Of a DNA stretch of 5,599 nucleotides, positions 349-4,884 are shown in pieces. A model generated the notes under the pieces. The model did not search any database. It was not told the DNA's origin and saw nothing but the letters and a program-made list of their open reading frames with translations. The stretch covers positions 1-5,599 of IMG/VR virus record IMGVR_UViG_2703718812_000014; one strand, 5' to 3'. Origin of the DNA: a virus (taxonomy: Duplodnaviria > Heunggongvirae > Uroviricota > Caudoviricetes). Every line of letters starts with the position of its first letter. Position 1 is the stretch's first letter. The translations under genes and the position numbers were made by a program.

Positions 349-376
349 TTGCGGTAAAGCGAGAGTTAAGTAGAAT
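349..376 (+). promoter_or_regulatory. candidate hok/mok mRNA promoter (-35 TTGCGG 349-354, 16-nt spacer, -10 TAGAAT 371-376)
   Basis: The -10 is a 5/6 match to TATAAT. The predicted start (~383) falls at GCGGGTGCTTGAGGCTATCTGCC, which closely resembles my recollection of the 5' end of plasmid R1 hok mRNA. Confidence 0.4.
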
Positions 377-430
377 TGCTGCGGGTGCTTGAGGCTATCT
401 GCCTCGGGCATGAACACCAACGGCAGATAG

Positions 431-502
431 AGAAAAGCCCCAGTTAACATTACGCGTCCGGCAAGACGCTTAACATTAATCTGAGGCCATATCTATGACT
501 TG
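431..502 (-). ncRNA. sok: predicted Sok-like antisense RNA overlapping the mok start and SD
   Basis: On the minus strand a -35 TTGCCT (complement of 533-538) and -10 TAACCT (complement of 510-515) with a 17-nt spacer would start transcription near 502, running antisense across the mok ATG (495) and ending in a U-rich tract (complement of 429-437). Position matches the known hok/sok layout; exact ends are uncertain. Confidence 0.35.
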
Positions 503-707
503 CACATGTAGGTTAGCCTCTTACGCGCCGAAAGGCAAGGAGAAGCAGGCTATGAAGCAGCAAAAGGCGATGTTAATCGCCCTGATCGTCATCTGTTTAA
601 CCGTCATAGTGACGGCACTGGTAACGAGGAAAGACCTCTGCGAGGTACGAATCCGAACCGGCCAGACGGAGGTCGCTGTCTTCACAGCTTACGAACCTGA
701 GGAGTAA
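495..707 (+). CDS. mok: Mok-like leader ORF (70 aa), an in-frame N-terminal extension of hok
   Basis: ATG at 495 opens a frame that runs through hok to the same stop; the 19-residue extension MTCTCRLASYAPKGKEKQA resembles Mok leaders of chromosomal hok loci as I recall them. Confidence 0.55.
   Translation: MTCTCRLASYAPKGKEKQAMKQQKAMLIALIVICLTVIVTALVTRKDLCEVRIRTGQTEVAVFTAYEPEE
552..707 (+). CDS. hok: Hok/Gef-family type I toxin (51 aa), HokD/RelF-like
   Basis: Product MKQQKAMLIALIVICLTVIVTALVTRKDLCEVRIRTGQTEVAVFTAYEPEE has an N-terminal TM helix and the conserved Hok C-terminal signature (RKxLCEVR...EVAVF.AYE); it is nested in a mok-like frame with hok-like leader structure. Confidence 0.85.
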   Translation: MKQQKAMLIALIVICLTVIVTALVTRKDLCEVRIRTGQTEVAVFTAYEPEE

Positions 708-728
708 GAGACCAGGCGGGGTAAACCC

Positions 729-795
729 CCGCCACCTCTGATGTGTCAGGCATCCTCAACGCACCCGCACTTAACCTACTTCGGCGGTTTTTTTT
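729..795 (+). terminator. hok mRNA 3' domain: fbi-like element (754-768) and T8 run (788-795)
   Basis: CCTCAACGCACCCGC (754-768) is complementary, with one bulged C, to the predicted mRNA 5' end GCGGGTGCTTGAGG (381-394), as in tac/fbi pairing. CCGCC (729-733) can pair with GGCGG (783-787), followed by eight T. Confidence 0.4.
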
Positions 796-915
796 CACGT
801 ACTGTGGTTGTGAATACGATTGGTATTAGGATATGCTAACAACATTAGCTTGACTAATTTTGTATTGACTTGATTTTTGTTAAAGAACAGGACGGAGAAG
901 TAAGGGGGGCACCCA

Positions 916-1095
916 ATGAGCTACGCACTAAAAAAACACCCGCGATTGACTATTCCCCCTCGCGATAAAAGCGTTGTGGCAGCTCCGCGCCCGGCTATCG
1001 ATGAAAATTGCACTCATCGTGAGCAGGTGAAAAATGCTTTCGATTTCGGTTTTTCTCGTTACGAGAAGGCAATGGAAGAACTTTCAAAAGTGTAA
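916..1095 (+). CDS. hypothetical 59-aa protein, candidate cognate partner (antitoxin) of the downstream Doc-family toxin
   Basis: ATG at 916 with AAGGGGGG (902-909) upstream; ends in tandem stops TAA-TGA (1093-1098) 18 nt before the Doc ATG, in the same frame. Sequence MSYALKKHPRLTIPPRDKSVVAAPRPAIDENCTHREQVKNAFDFGFSRYEKAMEELSKV does not resemble Phd as I recall it. Missed by the ORF track (<60 aa). Confidence 0.5.
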   Translation: MSYALKKHPRLTIPPRDKSVVAAPRPAIDENCTHREQVKNAFDFGFSRYEKAMEELSKV

Positions 1096-1113
1096 TGATG
1101 GGTATTGTGCTCT

Positions 1114-1599
1114 ATGGCTGAGATTGTTGAAGGAGTGCATTACCTTACGGTTGATGATCTTGTTGAAATCAATCGTTCCCTAATTGAATTACAGACGCCA
1201 GATGAGCTCGTTGGTGTTCTGAGTCCAGATAACTTAAGTTCTTCTCAGGCCCGTCCCAGCATGGTTCGATGGTATGAACAGACTAATGACATGTTTGTAC
1301 TGGCATCGGTATTGATTGAAAGTCTGATTCAGAATCATCCGTTTGCTAATGCGAACAAACGAACAGCTATGATGGCTGGTTACGTCTTCTTGTTGTTGAA
1401 TGGCTATGAATTAACAGCACCAGGCGATGAAATCGTGGAAATGGCAGAGGGACTGGCCTGCAAAACCTATACTCGAGAAGATCTCGAGAACTGGTTGTGT
1501 TATTGGTCTCGCGCGTATGACAGCCGGGAATTATGTAAAACAGGCGCAACTATTGTTTTGTATGAAACTATCAAGTTTAAAATGGAACAGCAAAACTAA
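1114..1599 (+). CDS. doc: Doc (death-on-curing) family Fic/Doc toxin, 161 aa
   Basis: Contains HPFANANKRTA, matching the Doc-type Fic motif HxFx(D/N)(A/G)NKR. Start taken as ATG 1114 (MAEIVEG...); the ORF track's 1105 is a TTG start. Followed by a strong intrinsic terminator. Confidence 0.8.
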   Translation: MAEIVEGVHYLTVDDLVEINRSLIELQTPDELVGVLSPDNLSSSQARPSMVRWYEQTNDMFVLASVLIESLIQNHPFANANKRTAMMAGYVFLLLNGYELTAPGDEIVEMAEGLACKTYTREDLENWLCYWSRAYDSRELCKTGATIVLYETIKFKMEQQN

Positions 1600-1613
1600 A
1601 GGTGCTTCCAATG

Positions 1614-1637
1614 AAAACCCGCTTCGGCGGGTTTTTT
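1614..1637 (+). terminator. rho-independent terminator (CCCGC-TTCG-GCGGG followed by T6), possibly bidirectional
   Basis: Stem 1618-1622 / 1627-1631 with a TTCG tetraloop, A4 upstream and T6 downstream (1632-1637), 15 nt after the Doc stop. Confidence 0.75.
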
Positions 1638-1827
1638 GTTGTTTATTTTCGGTGAGTATGATGCATCTGGTTGTACTGATGTGGTTGGCTGATTCTGTTA
1701 TTCAGGTGGCTTATTGCTGTTGATCGGTATGTCTTCACGGCTAGAATCGAGGCTCTTAAGTAGCGCGCAGGGAGAAGAGGGATGGACCCCGAAGGGGAAG
1801 AGCTATTTATCTGGAAGGATTCTGAAG

Positions 1828-2001
1828 ATGAAAATCGAAGAATTGCGTGAAATTTTTAGTGAAAATGGCCTCTATGCTGTGCGCGTTGAGAATGGGAAAG
1901 TTGTCTACACAACGTTAATCCCTGATGATCATGTAATTTTATCTATCGAGGCATTCATTGAATACCTTGAAAGGCTCGGTTTCAAGGTAGTTCGCGAATG
2001 A
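1828..2001 (+). CDS. small hypothetical protein, 57 aa (MKIEELREIFSENGLYAVRVENGKVVYTTLIPDDHVILSIEAFIEYLERLGFKVVRE)
   Basis: ATG at 1828 with GGAAGGA (1813-1819) upstream; the long N-terminal extension in the ORF track (from 1714) has no RBS and looks non-coding. Family not recognised. Confidence 0.5.
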   Translation: MKIEELREIFSENGLYAVRVENGKVVYTTLIPDDHVILSIEAFIEYLERLGFKVVRE

Positions 2002-2060: not shown

Positions 2061-2660
2061 ATGGCGCATATACAACTGGTCAAACAAACCTCTTCCGGAT
2101 TACTTCTCCCGGCGACGCCGGAGAGTTGTGATTTTCTGCATCAAATCAAAATAGGCGAGTGGATACACGCTGATTTCAAGCGCGTTCGTAACTACGCATT
2201 CCATAAGCGTTTTTTCAAACTTCTGCAACTCGGATTCGATTACTGGACTCCGGTCGGTGGGGCGATCACTCCTCGCGAGCGAAAACTGGTGTCCGGTTTC
2301 GTTGATTATCTGTGCGAATCAGTAGGCCGGGAACATACGCCAGCTCTGAGCGAAGCCGCAGAGCAATATCTGAATACAGTTGCGACACGCAGAACCCGAG
2401 ATACAGCATTGCTAAAGTCGTTTGAGGCTTTCCGCGAGTGGGTAACCATTCAGGCAGGATTTTACACCGAGCATATTTATCCTGATGGTAGTCGTGGGCG
2501 CAGGGCAAAATCTATCGCATTTGCGAACATGGACGAAACCGAGTTTCAGCAGGTTTATAAATCTGTACTGAATGTGCTGTGGAACTGGATCCTGTTCCGT
2601 AAATTTTCCTCTCCGGAGGAAGTCGAAAATGTGGCCGCGCAGCTGCTGGAGTTTGCGTAA
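2061..2660 (+). CDS. lambdoid nin-region protein, DUF1367-like (199 aa)
   Basis: ATG at 2061 with GGAG (2051-2054) upstream; the ORF track's 2049 is a TTG. Its stop overlaps the next start (TAATG at 2658-2662). Family assignment is from memory of nin-region gene order and needs a search. Confidence 0.7.
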   Translation: MAHIQLVKQTSSGLLLPATPESCDFLHQIKIGEWIHADFKRVRNYAFHKRFFKLLQLGFDYWTPVGGAITPRERKLVSGFVDYLCESVGREHTPALSEAAEQYLNTVATRRTRDTALLKSFEAFREWVTIQAGFYTEHIYPDGSRGRRAKSIAFANMDETEFQQVYKSVLNVLWNWILFRKFSSPEEVENVAAQLLEFA

Positions 2661-2950
2661 TGGTGGATTTACGTAAAGCGGCAAAAGGTCAGATGTGTAC
2701 AGTCAGAATTCCTGGCTACTGCAATCACAATCCCGAAACGTCCGTGCTGGCGCATTACAGGCTGGCGGGGACGTGTGGAACAGCGACAAAACCACACGAT
2801 ATGCAGGCGGCAATTGCCTGTAGCTCATGCCACGATTTAATCGACGGGCGGGTAAAAACCAGCGATTACACCAAAGAAGAATTGCGCCTGATGCATGCAG
2901 AAGGTGTTTTTCGCACACAAGAAATCTGGAGAAAGGAAGGTTATTTATGA
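2660..2950 (+). CDS. DUF1364 family phage protein, YbcO-like putative nuclease (96 aa)
   Basis: MVDLRKAAKGQMCTVRIPGYCNHNPETSVLAHYRLAGTCGTATKP...IACSSCHD carries the conserved Cys/His pattern and matches my recollection of DLP12 YbcO; start overlaps the upstream stop and its stop overlaps the Q start (ATGA at 2947-2950). Confidence 0.75.
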   Translation: MVDLRKAAKGQMCTVRIPGYCNHNPETSVLAHYRLAGTCGTATKPHDMQAAIACSSCHDLIDGRVKTSDYTKEELRLMHAEGVFRTQEIWRKEGYL

Positions 2951-3501
2951 TTTACCCAACAAATACAGGCAAAAGCGGGGAACGCCTTCGTCTCACCACG
3001 CTGGAAAGTGTCTGGATTCAGGGAAAACTGCGCATGTGGGGGCGCTGGTCGTATATTGGCGGCGGTAAGACGGGAAATATGTTCAACCAGTTGCTGACCT
3101 CTAAAAAGCTGACAAAAACGGCAATTAACGAGGCGCTCCGGAGGATGAAAAAAGCAGGTTTGGACAAACCTGAACTTGAGGCTTTTTTGCGGGATATGAT
3201 CAACGGCAAGCAAAAAAGCTGGCTGGTGCATTGTACTGATGCAGAGGCGTTATGCATTGATCGGGTGATTAGTGAAGTGCTGGCAGAACACCCAGGATTG
3301 ATTTGTATCCTCCGGCAACGATATGAAGGGAGGGGGATGACTAAGCGAAAAATGGCTGAATTGCTGAATGATTCACACCCTGAGTGGTGTTTTCGGACGT
3401 GCTGCAGTCGGGTAGATGTATGGCTAAATCTTGCTGAATATATGCTCTATCTACCGATGCGTGATGCATTCTCTTCCGGGGATCTAAAAACCGTCTGTTG
3501 A
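2947..3501 (+). CDS. Q: late-gene antitermination protein Q (184 aa)
   Basis: ATG 2947 with AGGAAGG (2934-2940) at 6-nt spacing; N-terminal ...KLRMWGRWSYIGGG...LLTSKKL resembles the Q-antiterminator family (compare DLP12 QuuD WGAW...LITSK). It sits just upstream of a promoter-plus-terminator pair, as expected for Q/PR'/tR'. Confidence 0.8.
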   Translation: MIYPTNTGKSGERLRLTTLESVWIQGKLRMWGRWSYIGGGKTGNMFNQLLTSKKLTKTAINEALRRMKKAGLDKPELEAFLRDMINGKQKSWLVHCTDAEALCIDRVISEVLAEHPGLICILRQRYEGRGMTKRKMAELLNDSHPEWCFRTCCSRVDVWLNLAEYMLYLPMRDAFSSGDLKTVC

Positions 3502-3527
3502 CTCAATCTGTTATCCGGGGCTATATT
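3498..3527 (+). promoter_or_regulatory. candidate late promoter PR' (-35 TTGACT 3498-3503, 18-nt spacer, -10 TATATT 3522-3527); a qut site is expected here
   Basis: Consensus-like hexamers directly after the Q stop, 60-80 nt upstream of an intrinsic terminator; this is the classic lambdoid Q-PR'-tR' layout. Inverted repeat TATCCGGGG (3512-3520) / CCCCGGATA (3565-3573) brackets the start region. Confidence 0.4.
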
Positions 3528-3588
3528 CCTCACGCGCCAGCAAAATCTGGCGTCGGGATTGGAACCCCGGATAGAGACCGCGACAGAC

Positions 3589-3610
3589 ACACGCCGCGAG
3601 CGTGTTTTTT
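3589..3610 (+). terminator. tR'-like rho-independent terminator (ACACGC-CGCGA-GCGTGT followed by T6)
   Basis: 6-bp GC-rich stem 3589-3594 / 3600-3605, 5-nt loop, T-run 3605-3610; about 75 nt downstream of the predicted PR' start. Confidence 0.6.
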
Positions 3611-3771
3611 ATTGTCGTATGCACGCGCACATCTGAATTATGGTGGGGCGCATGGGGGAGCTGAAAAGCTCGCCGGTCGGTTTCCCGGTAGTTCCAACCC
3701 TGTGCGTCTCACCACCCGATGATTGGAACCTGACGGTGGTGATAGTTTAGAAACCACCAGAGGGCGTCATT

Positions 3772-4188
3772 ATGACAACTCAAATTTCTGTTGAAACTCT
3801 CTCCCCGATCACCCATAACCGGATTCCTGTTATTACCACCGAACTTTTGGCGCAGCTTTACGGCACTGAGCCGGTGCGTATTCGCCAGAATCATCATGAG
3901 AACAAAGTACGCTTCGTTGAAGGGAAACACTTTTTCAAAGTTGTTGGTAATGACCTTAAAGAATTGCGGGTAGCTTTAAACTACTCACAAAATCCCATCT
4001 CTCCCAAAGCCCGCTCCCTTATCCTCTGGACAGAACGCGGAGCAGCCCGCCACGCAAAAATGCTCGAAACCGATCAGGCGTGGGATGTGTTCGAAAAACT
4101 GGAAGACTGCTATTTCAGTCAAAAGGATCCGTCAGCGCCAGTTGCATGCCAGAAAAGTTACGACACGCGAGTTCTCTGTTATCAGTGA
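3772..4188 (+). CDS. ORF6N-domain (phage antirepressor-like) protein, 138 aa; ends at an in-frame TGA followed by 46 further open codons to TAA 4327-4329 (possible truncation or readthrough)
   Basis: ATG 3772 with GAGGG (3760-3764) at 7-nt spacing; ...TTELLAQLYGTEPVRIRQNHHENKVRFVEGKHFFKV...ILWTERGAARHAKML fits the ORF6N pattern (AELYG...RFPE..F). The same frame stays open after TGA 4186-4188 with no independent start codon. Confidence 0.65.
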   Translation: MTTQISVETLSPITHNRIPVITTELLAQLYGTEPVRIRQNHHENKVRFVEGKHFFKVVGNDLKELRVALNYSQNPISPKARSLILWTERGAARHAKMLETDQAWDVFEKLEDCYFSQKDPSAPVACQKSYDTRVLCYQ

Positions 4189-4487: not shown

Positions 4488-4563
4488 GGCCCTTTAGCTC
4501 AGTAGTGAGAGCGAGCGACGCATAATCGCCAGGTCGCTGGTTCGAATCCAGTACAACGCGCCA
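4488..4563 (+). tRNA. tRNA-Ile(CAU)-like element resembling E. coli ileX / phage ileZ, probably a non-functional remnant with an unpaired acceptor stem
   Basis: D-arm GCTC-AGTAGTGA-GAGC, anticodon loop CGCATAA (anticodon CAT, but G at position 33), T-arm GCTGG-TTCGAAT-CCAGT and 3' CCA. The 5' acceptor strand GGCCCTT cannot pair with the 3' strand ACAACGC, and the anticodon stem has an A-C mismatch. Confidence 0.45.
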
Positions 4564-4577
4564 CACTTATTTTCCCT

Positions 4578-4603: not shown

Positions 4604-4800
4604 AAATGTCTCACAATTCAGGCGGTTGACTGTTGTCTGGTTTGCGGGGAGTTTGTTAAAAGAAACTGGCATGGTGAATCCCCCTGTGCGGAGGGGCAAT
4701 CAGTGAGTAGGTATATGGGATAATCGCGGATTCAGGTGCTGGTACTGAATTCACCGGGAGGCACCCGGCACCATGCAAGAAAAAGAATGTGCATGCAAAC

Positions 4801-4827
4801 ATGCCCCTCTCCGGAGGGGCATTTTTT
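4801..4827 (+). terminator. rho-independent terminator (ATGCCCCTC-TCCG-GAGGGGCAT followed by T6), overlapping a second 10-12-bp A/T-rich hairpin (4817-4844)
   Basis: 9-bp stem, 4-nt loop, T-run 4822-4827; the T-run then pairs with A6 at 4834-4839 (GCATTTTTTA / TAAAAAATGC), giving mutually exclusive structures. The sequence runs into the N gap. Confidence 0.5.
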
Positions 4828-4848
4828 ATGGGTAAAAAATGCCCGAAT

Positions 4849-4884
4849 NNNNNNNNNNNNNNNNNNNNNNNNNNNNNNNNNNNN
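4849..4884. other. run of 36 N (assembly gap or masked bases)
   Basis: Literal n characters; true length and content unknown. Hides the start of the nanS-p-like gene. Confidence 0.95.

Follow-up and report, generated by a model that had tools for sequence, protein, structure and literature searches.

In the early-gene region of an Escherichia coli lambdoid prophage, two genuine and otherwise ordinary toxin-antitoxin (TA) cassettes adjoin, one being Hok/Sok and the other a Doc toxin with a small partner. The window (the whole stretch of DNA analyzed, 5,599 nt) holds at 349-794 an entire hok/mok/sok type I locus, recognized by Rfam, Pfam, folding and alignment. At 808-1637 follows a two-gene cassette: a 59-aa ORF, then the gene for a Doc-family toxin, then a strong terminator. 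The initial annotation of this DNA had placed a type I Hok locus and, directly after it, a Doc-family cassette at these positions, and both are borne out, the former by matches to RF01794 and PF01848, the latter by matches of TIGR01550 and PF02661 to the CDS at 1114-1599. The toxins are unrelated, as had been claimed: one is a type I membrane peptide and the other belongs to the type II Fic-fold kinases. The expected block of DUF1367, YbcO (formerly DUF1364) and DUF1133/Q-like genes is indeed found 3′ of both modules, at 2061-3501 (Pfam). The interval originally marked out begins at the first base of a weak -35 element (TTGCGG, 349) and ends at the end of a strong terminator (1637). The features of the region are as follows.

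349-376, plus strand: candidate hok promoter (-35 TTGCGG at 349-354, 16-nt spacer, -10 TAGAAT at 371-376), read from the sequence
383-557, plus strand: hok mRNA leader (tac/ucb region, mok start and Sok target), from Rfam RF01794 ‘sok’
433-503, minus strand: antisense RNA Sok, placed by its homology with SokW as annotated in phage 933W
495-707, plus strand: mok ORF of 70 aa, in the same frame as hok (ORF list)
552-707, plus strand: hok toxin CDS, 51 aa (PF01848 HOK_GEF, phrog_251)
754-766, plus strand: fbi element, at which the 3′ part of the mRNA folds back onto its 5′ end (MFE fold)
773-794, plus strand: hok terminator, degenerate; copy 1 of a direct repeat (repeat D1, fold energy)
808-870, plus strand: candidate control region of the Doc cassette, likewise read by hand
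916-1095, plus strand: orf59, putative Doc antitoxin, 59 aa (phrog_2208, gene-pair conservation)
1114-1599, plus strand: Doc-family toxin CDS, 161 aa, with an alternative TTG start at 1105 (TIGR01550, PF02661, phrog_577)
1613-1637, plus strand: Doc cassette terminator; copy 2 of the direct repeat (terminator scan, fold energy)
1828-2001, plus strand: rem-like ORF (remnant), the ancestral neighbor of hok (phrog_340, 1e-18)

In the ORF list, mok, hok, orf59 and doc are all intact. The host prophage has frameshifted recE, terminase and capsid genes, and PGAP calls the rem-like ORF a partial pseudogene; the rem-like region (1755-1895) and the rem region of PPompW share 92% identity. An ARAGORN scan of the window found no tRNA.

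The hok/mok/sok locus

The hok CDS matches PF01848 (1.2e-23, 82.9 bits against a cutoff of 22) and phrog_251 (2.8e-33), and on identical DNA RefSeq carries the label hokD (WP_000813254.1). The RNA architecture of the locus is complete. RF01794 is matched over its full length (model positions 1-157 of 157; 108.4 bits against a gathering score of 59, E 9.6e-25) by 383-557 of the plus strand; it should be noted that this model, named ‘sok’, matches the hok-sense strand. Sok itself is located by the SokW misc_RNA of 933W (1595-1665, minus strand, in locus L017), which aligns to 433-503. The minus strand of that region folds as a long hairpin with a U-rich tail behind it (-29.6 kcal/mol, z -3.85), and a candidate Sok promoter (TTGCCT, 17-nt spacer, TAACCT) can be made out by eye just upstream on the same strand. 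The Rfam match would place the 5′ end of the mRNA at 383, 7 nt downstream of the candidate hok promoter, which is conserved in an alignment of five loci. In the MFE fold of 383-796, the 5′ segment 383-394 pairs with the fbi element (-160.3 kcal/mol, z -5.5), and none of 100 shuffles folds as well.

The nearest known relative is hokW-mokW-sokW of 933W and Sakai Sp5, which belongs to the hok/sok family whose prototype is that of plasmid R1. Across the entire locus the nucleotide identity is about 94%, both have the fbi element, the Sok regions correspond base for base, and the mok/hok layout is the one annotated for mokW/hokW in 933W, and also for mok/hok in Rac-SA53. The hokW-sokW locus of Sp5 is a type I TA system by experiment, and the published primers for it, YO-349 and YO-350, have exact matches at 388-412 and 739-763 (PMC8621323). 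The two differ in place, hokW lying at the right end of phage 933W whereas the hok of the window has the replication genes on one side and the Q region on the other, and also in what follows, since the window copy has lost its terminator hairpin and has the Doc cassette 3′ of it. The terminator loss is a lineage-specific defect and no difference between families.

By analogy with this family, a stable hok mRNA would be kept silent in translation by the pairing of its 5′ and 3′ ends, while short-lived Sok would block translation of mok and thereby of hok. When Sok synthesis stops, processed mRNA would be translated, and the 51-aa Hok would then depolarize the inner membrane.

The Doc toxin and its small partner

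The second toxin is a Doc protein by every profile: TIGR01550 DOC_P1 (2.1e-36, 124.8 bits against a cutoff of 38.65), PF02661 (7e-12) and phrog_577 ‘Doc-like toxin’ (6e-51). Its relatives in the PDB are Doc proteins only, the closest being 9vzc (6.6e-13), with Doc of P1 (3k33) at 3e-5. In the kinase-type Doc motif, HxFx(D/N)(A/G)NKR, NKR replaces the GNGR of AMPylating Fic proteins. The kinase-type motif is kept here: H75-P-F-A-N-A-N-K-R83 aligns with H66-R74 of P1 Doc (HIFNDANKR).

The stop codon of orf59 lies 18 nt before the doc start. The gene belongs to phrog_2208, ‘unknown’ (2.7e-42), and is ‘hypothetical’ in RefSeq; it has no Pfam or NCBIfam match, and a Pfam scan of 37 representatives of the family was likewise empty. 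Profile searches of the PDB with orf59 alignments of 15 and 37 sequences returned chance matches only. Known antitoxin types were also considered. A Phd/YefM identity was rejected, there being no PF02604 match and an hhalign probability against Phd of 0.2%; a suspected likeness between the orf59 C-terminus and the helix by which Phd binds Doc, based on how F, F, L/Y and L are spaced, was dropped on the same comparison. The VbhA-type Fic inhibitor motif, (S/T)xxxE(G/N), is absent from orf59 by eye. AlphaFold predicts a lone C-terminal helix (residues 34-57, pLDDT above 90) in a protein that is otherwise largely unstructured, with no DNA-binding fold. Since orf59 has neither Phd similarity, nor a solved relative, nor a DNA-binding fold, classical autoregulation lacks an explanation in this cassette.

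The orf59 gene is nonetheless conserved. Both cassette genes are under strong purifying selection, with pN of 0.11-0.20 against pS of 0.73-0.82 for orf59. Its C-terminal 23 residues are invariant, and two motifs, RLxIPPRDK and QVxNAFxxxFxRYxKAxxxLSKV, are kept across the 37 representatives. At all informative loci with a confident homologue, orf59 lies directly 5′ of a Fic/Doc gene, on the same strand and with a gap of 3-18 nt. The pair has been seen in E. coli (four backgrounds), Salmonella, Ewingella, two Pseudomonas phages, a metagenome contig and another contig. No Doc gene follows one distant orf59-like protein (P0048, E 1e-4), which could be a false positive or the product of a solitary gene.

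We take orf59-doc to be a type II system. Doc, as a Fic-fold kinase, would be expected to phosphorylate EF-Tu and so stop translation, and the orf59 product would be the protein antitoxin, neutralizing Doc most likely through its invariant C-terminal helix, perhaps with a contribution of the conserved N-terminal RLxIPPRDK segment.

The model for such a pair is phd-doc of P1, whose Doc is a kinase of EF-Tu. Shared with it are the TIGR01550 subfamily, the kinase-type motif, a small gene close upstream and a temperate phage as carrier. The window Doc, at 161 aa, has a C-terminal extension of 30-35 aa and is 26% identical to P1 Doc, and its partner of 59 aa, unlike Phd, is outside the Phd/YefM family and has no DNA-binding fold. 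For the partner a likeness is offered by PaaA2, a very small antitoxin that is largely disordered and has no DNA-binding domain. Like orf59-doc, the paaR2-paaA2-parE2 system is a type II system on a prophage and has a tiny, mostly disordered antitoxin, the disorder being predicted in the case of orf59. The systems differ in toxin family, and paaR2 is a separate regulator whereas orf59-doc has no third gene. The carrier of paaR2-paaA2-parE2 is a cryptic prophage of E. coli O157:H7 (PMC8630535).

A cassette at the hok terminator

The initial annotation had credited each module with its own promoter-like and terminator-like signals, of which only part stands: the Doc terminator is strong, but the hok terminator is degenerate and a consensus promoter scan of 349-1637 found no promoter for either module at the threshold of 9/12. 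The promoters named here for hok and Doc are thus hand-read candidates, weak and below that threshold. The candidate Doc promoter consists of -35 TTGTGA (808-813), an 18-nt spacer and -10 TATGCT (832-837). An inverted repeat (GCTAA-CAACA-TTAGC, 835-849) and tandem TTGACT (850-855 and 865-870), picked out by eye, may be operators. The -10 form TATxxT is retained in three otherwise divergent upstream regions (that of the window type and those of L004 and L008), and tandem TTGAC repeats also occur 5′ of the Pseudomonas phage homologues.

The terminators are two copies of one sequence. The direct repeat D1 lies at 773-794 and at 1616-1637, a spacing of 843 nt. The second copy is intact: 1613-1636 forms a 10-bp stem with a T run (-16.2 kcal/mol, z -3.6), and this Doc cassette terminator is 100% identical to the hok terminators of L005 and L015 and identical to the consensus hok terminator. 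The first copy has lost its hairpin (-1.6 kcal/mol, where the intact copy of L005 has -12.7), retaining the T run at 787-794, so that the hairpin of the intrinsic terminator that would define the 3′ end of the hok mRNA is abolished in the window. This exact variant is present in 24 of 5,426 genomes; some 96 other hok-doc loci retain an intact hok terminator. Strain 13E0780 and an O121:H19 strain are examples with the degenerate form, and F6321 is one with the intact form. With the hok terminator destroyed, the two units may not be transcriptionally independent here, and the maturation of hok mRNA may be altered.

Junction alignments put the cassette at a precise position. Homology to cassette-less hok loci stops at 773-794, and in all loci compared the flanks diverge directly after the T run of the Doc terminator. 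An 843-bp cassette thus sits exactly at the hok terminator, with the duplicated terminator at both ends. In cassette-less alleles (Rac-SA53, PPompW and pPE4), the hok terminator leads straight to rem or DUF1367. Where the cassette is present its right flank varies between prophages; that of L003 is the sequence found 3′ of the hok terminator in pPE4.

The region had been read as a prophage cargo hotspot, and a comparison of the interval across related prophages had been proposed. So compared, the interval varies. Of the 5,426 complete E. coli genomes, 4,722-4,815 have hok, with about 10,800 hok terminator sites in the set. The Doc cassette is present in about 125, 120 of them with the cassette directly after hok, a linkage that the initial annotation had missed, and the full arrangement of 300-2100 in 39. 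The interval is not invariant, and its occupants differ: the same spot holds RelE with an HTH protein in O104:H4, where the pair is 3′ of the Doc cassette, ParDE with VapBC in Salmonella, and relBE in K-12 Qin. In Salmonella the cassette lies beside a different hok in the opposite orientation. It is found without hok in Ewingella, the Pseudomonas phages and L011. Carriers of the cassette include the Shiga-toxin-producing lineages O157:H7, O121:H19, O103:H2 and O104:H4.

The cassette resembles the morons of lambdoid phages (promoter-gene-terminator) in being compact, in having its own terminator, and in being present or absent between homologous flanks. It differs in being flanked by a duplicated terminator of its neighbor, which suggests a simple recombination route in and out. 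In our proposal, the cassette is a moron of 843 bp that went in precisely at the terminator of hok and has one of the two terminator copies on either side. Because of the duplication, one crossover in hok and a second, short one in the terminator could carry it to any hok locus, and it would be lost if the two copies recombined with each other. Such a route would account for the rarity of the cassette, its near-constant linkage to hok and the differing genes downstream.

Interpretation and significance

We prefer the view that the interval consists of two independent, selfish TA cassettes that have come to adjoin in a Rac-like lambdoid prophage, within its early region, the equivalent of nin, and consider it probable. 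Some kind of concerted function has to be weighed against it. The modules could have been selected together as an anti-phage or superinfection-exclusion islet, in which the shut-off of host transcription or translation by an infecting phage would free a membrane toxin and a translation toxin for a layered abortive infection. Clustered TA modules are typical of defense islands, and the islet would fit the placement of the cassette after hok in E. coli, its renewed proximity to a hok, with ParDE and VapBC, in Salmonella, and the RelE/HTH pair in O104:H4. However, the linkage would follow just as well from one insertion event at the terminator of hok, with later spread through recombination within hok, and the cassette also occurs apart from hok. 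PADLOC has no significant model match for either toxin: it returned nothing for Hok or orf59, and for Doc a weak partial match to the candidate PDC-S23 (E 0.002). Moreover, the tested homologue, hokW-sokW, promoted the release of its own phage instead of acting in defense (PMC8621323). A defensive islet is unlikely in our estimate, and we found nothing in support of cooperation between the two modules. A different form of coupling would arise if hok, orf59 and doc made up a single transcription unit in the lineage of the window, with read-through to the Doc terminator joining type I and type II. The weakened hok terminator, fixed in 24 genomes, would permit this, no strong promoter was found 5′ of orf59, and the next strong terminator is at 1613-1636. 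Similarly, hokD of Qin directly adjoins a type II pair, in an operon called relBEF (PMC3598666). On the other hand, the many hok-doc loci with an intact hok terminator imply that read-through is unnecessary for cassette function, and the conserved -10-like TATxxT 5′ of orf59 and the T run left behind the lost hairpin also speak for separate units. We give a single unit a low but real chance.

Doubts can also be raised about what the modules do. If orf59 were no antitoxin, Doc could be a Fic enzyme that acts alone or is controlled in another way, such as a phage-encoded one that modifies a host protein during lytic growth, and orf59 a co-transcribed small protein acting as regulator, chaperone or substrate adaptor. 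This would agree with the failure of orf59 to resemble any known antitoxin family, with its mostly unstructured state beyond one helix, and with the early-region location, from which transcription is expected on induction. But antitoxins are commonly disordered with a single binding helix, as in the C-terminus of Phd and in PaaA2. The order of small gene and toxin, with its 3-18 nt gap, kept in unrelated contexts across Enterobacterales and Pseudomonas phages, is a type II signature, and the NKR motif favors the kinase class of toxin. We find this version improbable. Equally improbable is that the modules are decaying, non-functional relics of a cryptic prophage. The frameshifted prophage genes, the rem remnant and the mutated hok terminator do point to decay around them, but both modules are intact and conserved in sequence: the four frames are open, the RNA elements complete, the catalytic motif undamaged, and both cassette genes are under strong purifying selection. 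With two selfish cassettes as the preferred reading, any benefit to the prophage may lie in its retention, in abortive infection or in the timing of lysis.

The K-12 Qin relBE-hokD locus is a precedent for hok and a type II pair as neighbors. In relB-relE-hokD (relBEF), too, a type II pair adjoins hok in the same lambdoid place, followed by rem and the Q region. In Qin, however, the pair is upstream and has taken the place of sok and the leader of hok, whereas the window has a complete hok/sok locus with the pair downstream of it; the toxin is RelE in the one and Doc in the other. A literature search on the pairing of hok with doc specifically found nothing. What is new is solely the protein partner of Doc and the seating of the cassette at the hok terminator. 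A more ambitious reading, that orf59 founds a family of minimal Doc antitoxins (about 55-60 aa, without a DNA-binding domain), on an 843-bp cassette that recombines through hok terminators and shares a fused type I/II transcript in 24 genomes, is one we entertain as a possibility while leaning against it.

The value of the finding is mostly in annotation. In lambdoid prophages of E. coli and Salmonella, type II systems (Doc, RelE, ParE and VapC) have repeatedly landed at the position just after the hok terminator, and a family so far named ‘hypothetical’ in RefSeq and ‘unknown’ in PHROGs gains a candidate role as Doc antitoxin. As the carriers include Shiga-toxin-producing strains, effects on the retention or induction of the prophage would be of some applied interest. 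If orf59, lacking both a Phd fold and a DNA-binding domain, does neutralize Doc, it would represent a new class of Doc partner, and how the cassette is regulated would become a question in its own right.

The Hok and Doc modules in a lambdoid prophage

The stretch comes from a Rac-like lambdoid prophage. E. coli 13E0780 has identical DNA, inside a prophage adjoining copD/yebY. That prophage runs from integrase through recombination genes, the repressor, the ydaU/ydaV replication genes, DUF1627, DUF977 and DUF551 to the hok and Doc modules, and then on to DUF1367, YbcO, DUF1133 (Q-like), lysis genes and head genes. By this gene order, the interval 349–1637 corresponds to the nin region of lambda, as the initial annotation had it. 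The RefSeq annotation at the locus already names hokD and a death-on-curing toxin. The modules comprise:

349–794: hok module
433–503 (minus strand): Sok RNA, its position carried over from the annotated SokW of phage 933W
495–707: mok, an in-frame 5′ extension of hok, laid out as mok is annotated in 933W and Rac-SA53
552–707: hok, 51 codons (Pfam HOK_GEF, 1.2e-23; phrog_251)
808–1637: Doc module
916–1095 (plus strand): orf59, 59 codons, with a good Shine-Dalgarno sequence and a stop 18 bases 5′ of doc
1114–1599 (plus strand): doc, Doc-family toxin gene
1613–1636: strong Doc terminator (−16.2 kcal/mol)

The entire hok locus can be aligned with hokW/mokW/sokW of 933W, and both primers published for hokW-sokW (PMC8621323) are present verbatim, at 388–412 and 739–763. 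When 383–796 is folded as a single RNA, the first 12 bases (383–394) pair with 754–766 (z = −5.5; 0 of 100 shuffles were as good); this tac/fbi fold-back of the 5′ end onto the 3′ end is the defining trait of hok mRNAs. The minus strand of the Sok region forms a long hairpin that leads into a U-rich tail (z = −3.85). Rfam "sok" covers its full model at 383–557 (108.4 bits; gathering score 59). It should be noted that, in all loci examined, the matches to this family ("sok antitoxin") fall on the hok-sense strand. The family therefore models the hok mRNA leader, the Sok RNA being on the opposite strand, and strand calls need inverting when Sok is located from such matches.

Just 5′ of hok, two tiny ORFs (83–166 and 202–306) encode strongly hydrophobic peptides, one of 27 aa (MNWPEAFAITGVAMAIAFLVYVICRWG) and one of 34 aa annotated as WP_001278450.1. 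Family searches with the two returned nothing beyond weak PHROG similarity. Further elements lie toward the other end:

3521–3573: a1b1 targets (50 bits)
3534–3610: isrK (77.5 bits)
3636–3719: C4 antisense RNA (71 bits)
3772–4188: ORF6N (antirepressor-type) gene
4494–4564: tRNA-like element
4640–4833: sRNA STnc100, full-length match (143.7 bits, E = 8e-33)
4849–4884: 36 N (masked bases or an assembly gap)

The three RNA matches follow directly 3′ of the Q-like DUF1133, with the ORF6N gene after them, and 3521–4188 looks like an immunity module of the P1/P7 c4-ant type or the Gifsy-1 IsrK/AnrP type in the late-regulation region. The RNA trio is found again in the O104:H4 locus. The tRNA-like element is matched by Rfam tRNA at 35 bits over model positions 7–64 only; ARAGORN calls no tRNA there and PGAP annotates tRNA-Met on identical DNA, and the element is possibly a degenerate phage tRNA. 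STnc100 is 5′ of the esterase-like ORF at the window end, and the N run is just 5′ of this long ORF, a DUF6645 or SASA-family esterase in RefSeq.

Doc and its candidate antitoxin

The toxin belongs to the Doc subfamily. Its gene product matches TIGR01550 (DOC_P1) at 124.8 bits (cutoff 38.65), as well as Pfam Fic and phrog_577, "Doc-like toxin". Among solved structures it is related to Doc proteins alone (9vzc, 6.6e-13; P1 Doc, 3e-5). Residues 75–83, HPFANANKR, align with HIFNDANKR of P1 Doc, and it is the NKR form of this motif that sets Doc kinases apart from AMPylating Fic enzymes.

The small gene orf59 very probably encodes the cognate antitoxin. The evidence is genomic, and from it we infer binding and neutralisation of Doc. 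In every informative locus with a confident orf59 homologue, a Fic/Doc gene lies directly 3′ on the same strand, and the surroundings of these loci are unrelated: four different E. coli prophage backgrounds, a Salmonella prophage, the baseplate region of an Ewingella myovirus-like prophage, a contig (L011) where the pair adjoins dinI-umuDC, two Pseudomonas aeruginosa temperate phages where its neighbour is an integrase, and a metagenome contig where it adjoins an IS element. Both genes evolve under strong purifying selection; against the Salmonella, Ewingella and L011 copies, pS is 0.73–0.89 (saturated) and pN 0.11–0.25.

The orf59 family is small and has no name. Pfam and NCBIfam searches of orf59 gave no match, and PHROGs places it in phrog_2208, function listed as unknown. 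The family has 17 clusters at 90% identity, with 39 representatives among 1.84 billion proteins; nearly all are 47–66 aa long, with a few up to about 95 aa, and no member carries a Pfam domain. Two segments are conserved family-wide: RLxIPPRDK toward the N-terminal end and, C-terminally, QVxNAFxxxFxRYxKAxxxLSKV. Whether run on the shallow alignment or the deeper one, AlphaFold predicts one confident helix (residues 34–57) and no folded N-terminal domain, and a search of solved structures found no relatives. A likeness of the C-terminus to the Doc-binding helix of Phd found no support (hhalign probability 0.2%). The protein does not belong to Phd/YefM and is without a recognisable DNA-binding domain. 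Thus, although the pair probably works like phd-doc, it is classed as a Doc toxin whose partner is not a Phd protein.

Candidate promoters and the lost hok terminator

Each module had been credited with its own promoter-like and terminator-like signals. This holds for the strong Doc terminator; the hok terminator is destroyed and the candidate promoters are weak. A promoter scan at a threshold of 9/12 found no site within 349–1637, and the following weak candidates were picked by eye:

349–376: hok, TTGCGG-16-TAGAAT, in the right place, 7 nt 5′ of the mRNA start
Minus strand: Sok, TTGCCT-17-TAACCT
808–837: orf59, TTGTGA-18-TATGCT

Across three upstream regions that have diverged, the candidate −10 of orf59 is retained as TATxxT. 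Tandem TTGAC(T/A) repeats, spaced 13–15 nt, precede orf59 in the window (850–870) and in the Pseudomonas phage loci L018 and L019, where the sequence around them is unrelated to that in E. coli; they may serve as operator half-sites or as twin −35 boxes. In L1_E925 (L004) and Salmonella, a palindrome, TGCAC-TAATTTA-GTGCA, replaces the TTGACT repeats.

The hok terminator hairpin (773–794) is abolished by three changes (CCCGC to CCTAC, and one G lost), its fold here having −1.6 kcal/mol and that of the intact terminator −12.7. Of 5,426 complete E. coli genomes, 24 share this degenerate allele, O121:H19 (outbreak-type) strains among them. With the terminator destroyed, hok transcripts may run into orf59-doc in this lineage, a minor rival reading that recalls the relBEF operon. 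The 3′ processing of hok mRNA may be affected as well.

A terminator-bounded cassette in variable cargo

Between hok loci that carry the orf59-doc cassette and those that lack it, homology stops exactly where the T run of the hok terminator, AACCCGCTTCGGCGGGTTTTT, ends. The terminator's 22–26 bases are repeated 3′ of doc (1616–1637), 843 bases downstream, and beyond the second copy comes the sequence that cassette-less relatives have after their only hok terminator: past this point the window resembles PPompW, and strain M6 resembles pPE4. This makes the cassette a moron flanked by two copies of one terminator. As a closely similar hairpin closes its Ewingella copy, the homology used at the original junction may have come from the terminator of the cassette itself. 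The cassette is also mosaic. Compared with L1_E925 (L004 3880–4684 against window 795–1599), orf59 has diverged (dS 0.61) and doc is almost identical (dS 0.01), with an unrelated upstream/promoter region; a recombination breakpoint lies inside the cassette.

Counts among the 5,426 complete E. coli genomes
hok segment: 4,722–4,815, usually several copies per genome
Doc cassette, coverage at least 80%: 125
hok and Doc contiguous: 120
Entire 300–2100 arrangement: 39

The right flank of the cassette varies among prophages. It is a rem remnant and DUF1367 in the window, M6 and F6321; an oppositely oriented RelE/ParE-family toxin and HTH pair, then ORF6N and ninB, in O104:H4; and DUF968, RusA and Q in L1_E925. 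In the cassette-less Rac-SA53, PPompW and pPE4, rem or DUF1367 is directly 3′ of hok. The Salmonella cassette has a different hok/sok locus, in opposite orientation, on one side and ParDE and VapBC on the other, making four TA modules (hok/sok, orf59-doc, parDE, vapBC) in about 2.5 kb (Salmonella enterica DAAWNC010000008.1, L008 3496–6009). An interval invariant across related prophages would refute a cargo hotspot; the interval varies, and with the cassette in so few genomes and its right flanks differing, that reading stands. A defence-model search gave no significant match to either module, and nothing in the analysis ties the two together in function. The textbook precedent for a type II pair stacked against hok in a lambdoid prophage is K-12 Qin, with relB-relE-hokD-rem at the equivalent site.

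Over hok and the DUF1367-YbcO-Q block, the pPE4 record (PP818812.1, "Actinobacillus phage vB_Apl-pPE4") shares 94–95% identity with the DNA of E. coli lambdoid prophages. This is unexpected for a phage from Pasteurellaceae; its host may have been misassigned, or an E. coli prophage may be the source of the sequence.

In closing, the stacked Hok and Doc toxin modules are real and were correctly interpreted, and we judge them ordinary. Modestly new are the terminator-bounded cassette at the hok terminator, the antitoxin family of orf59 and the loss of the hok terminator in this lineage. Two crossovers, the first within hok and the second within the terminator, could carry the cassette into any hok locus, and recombination between the two terminator copies could remove it. 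Transfer by such crossovers would account for the tight linkage to hok, with functional cooperation not needed.
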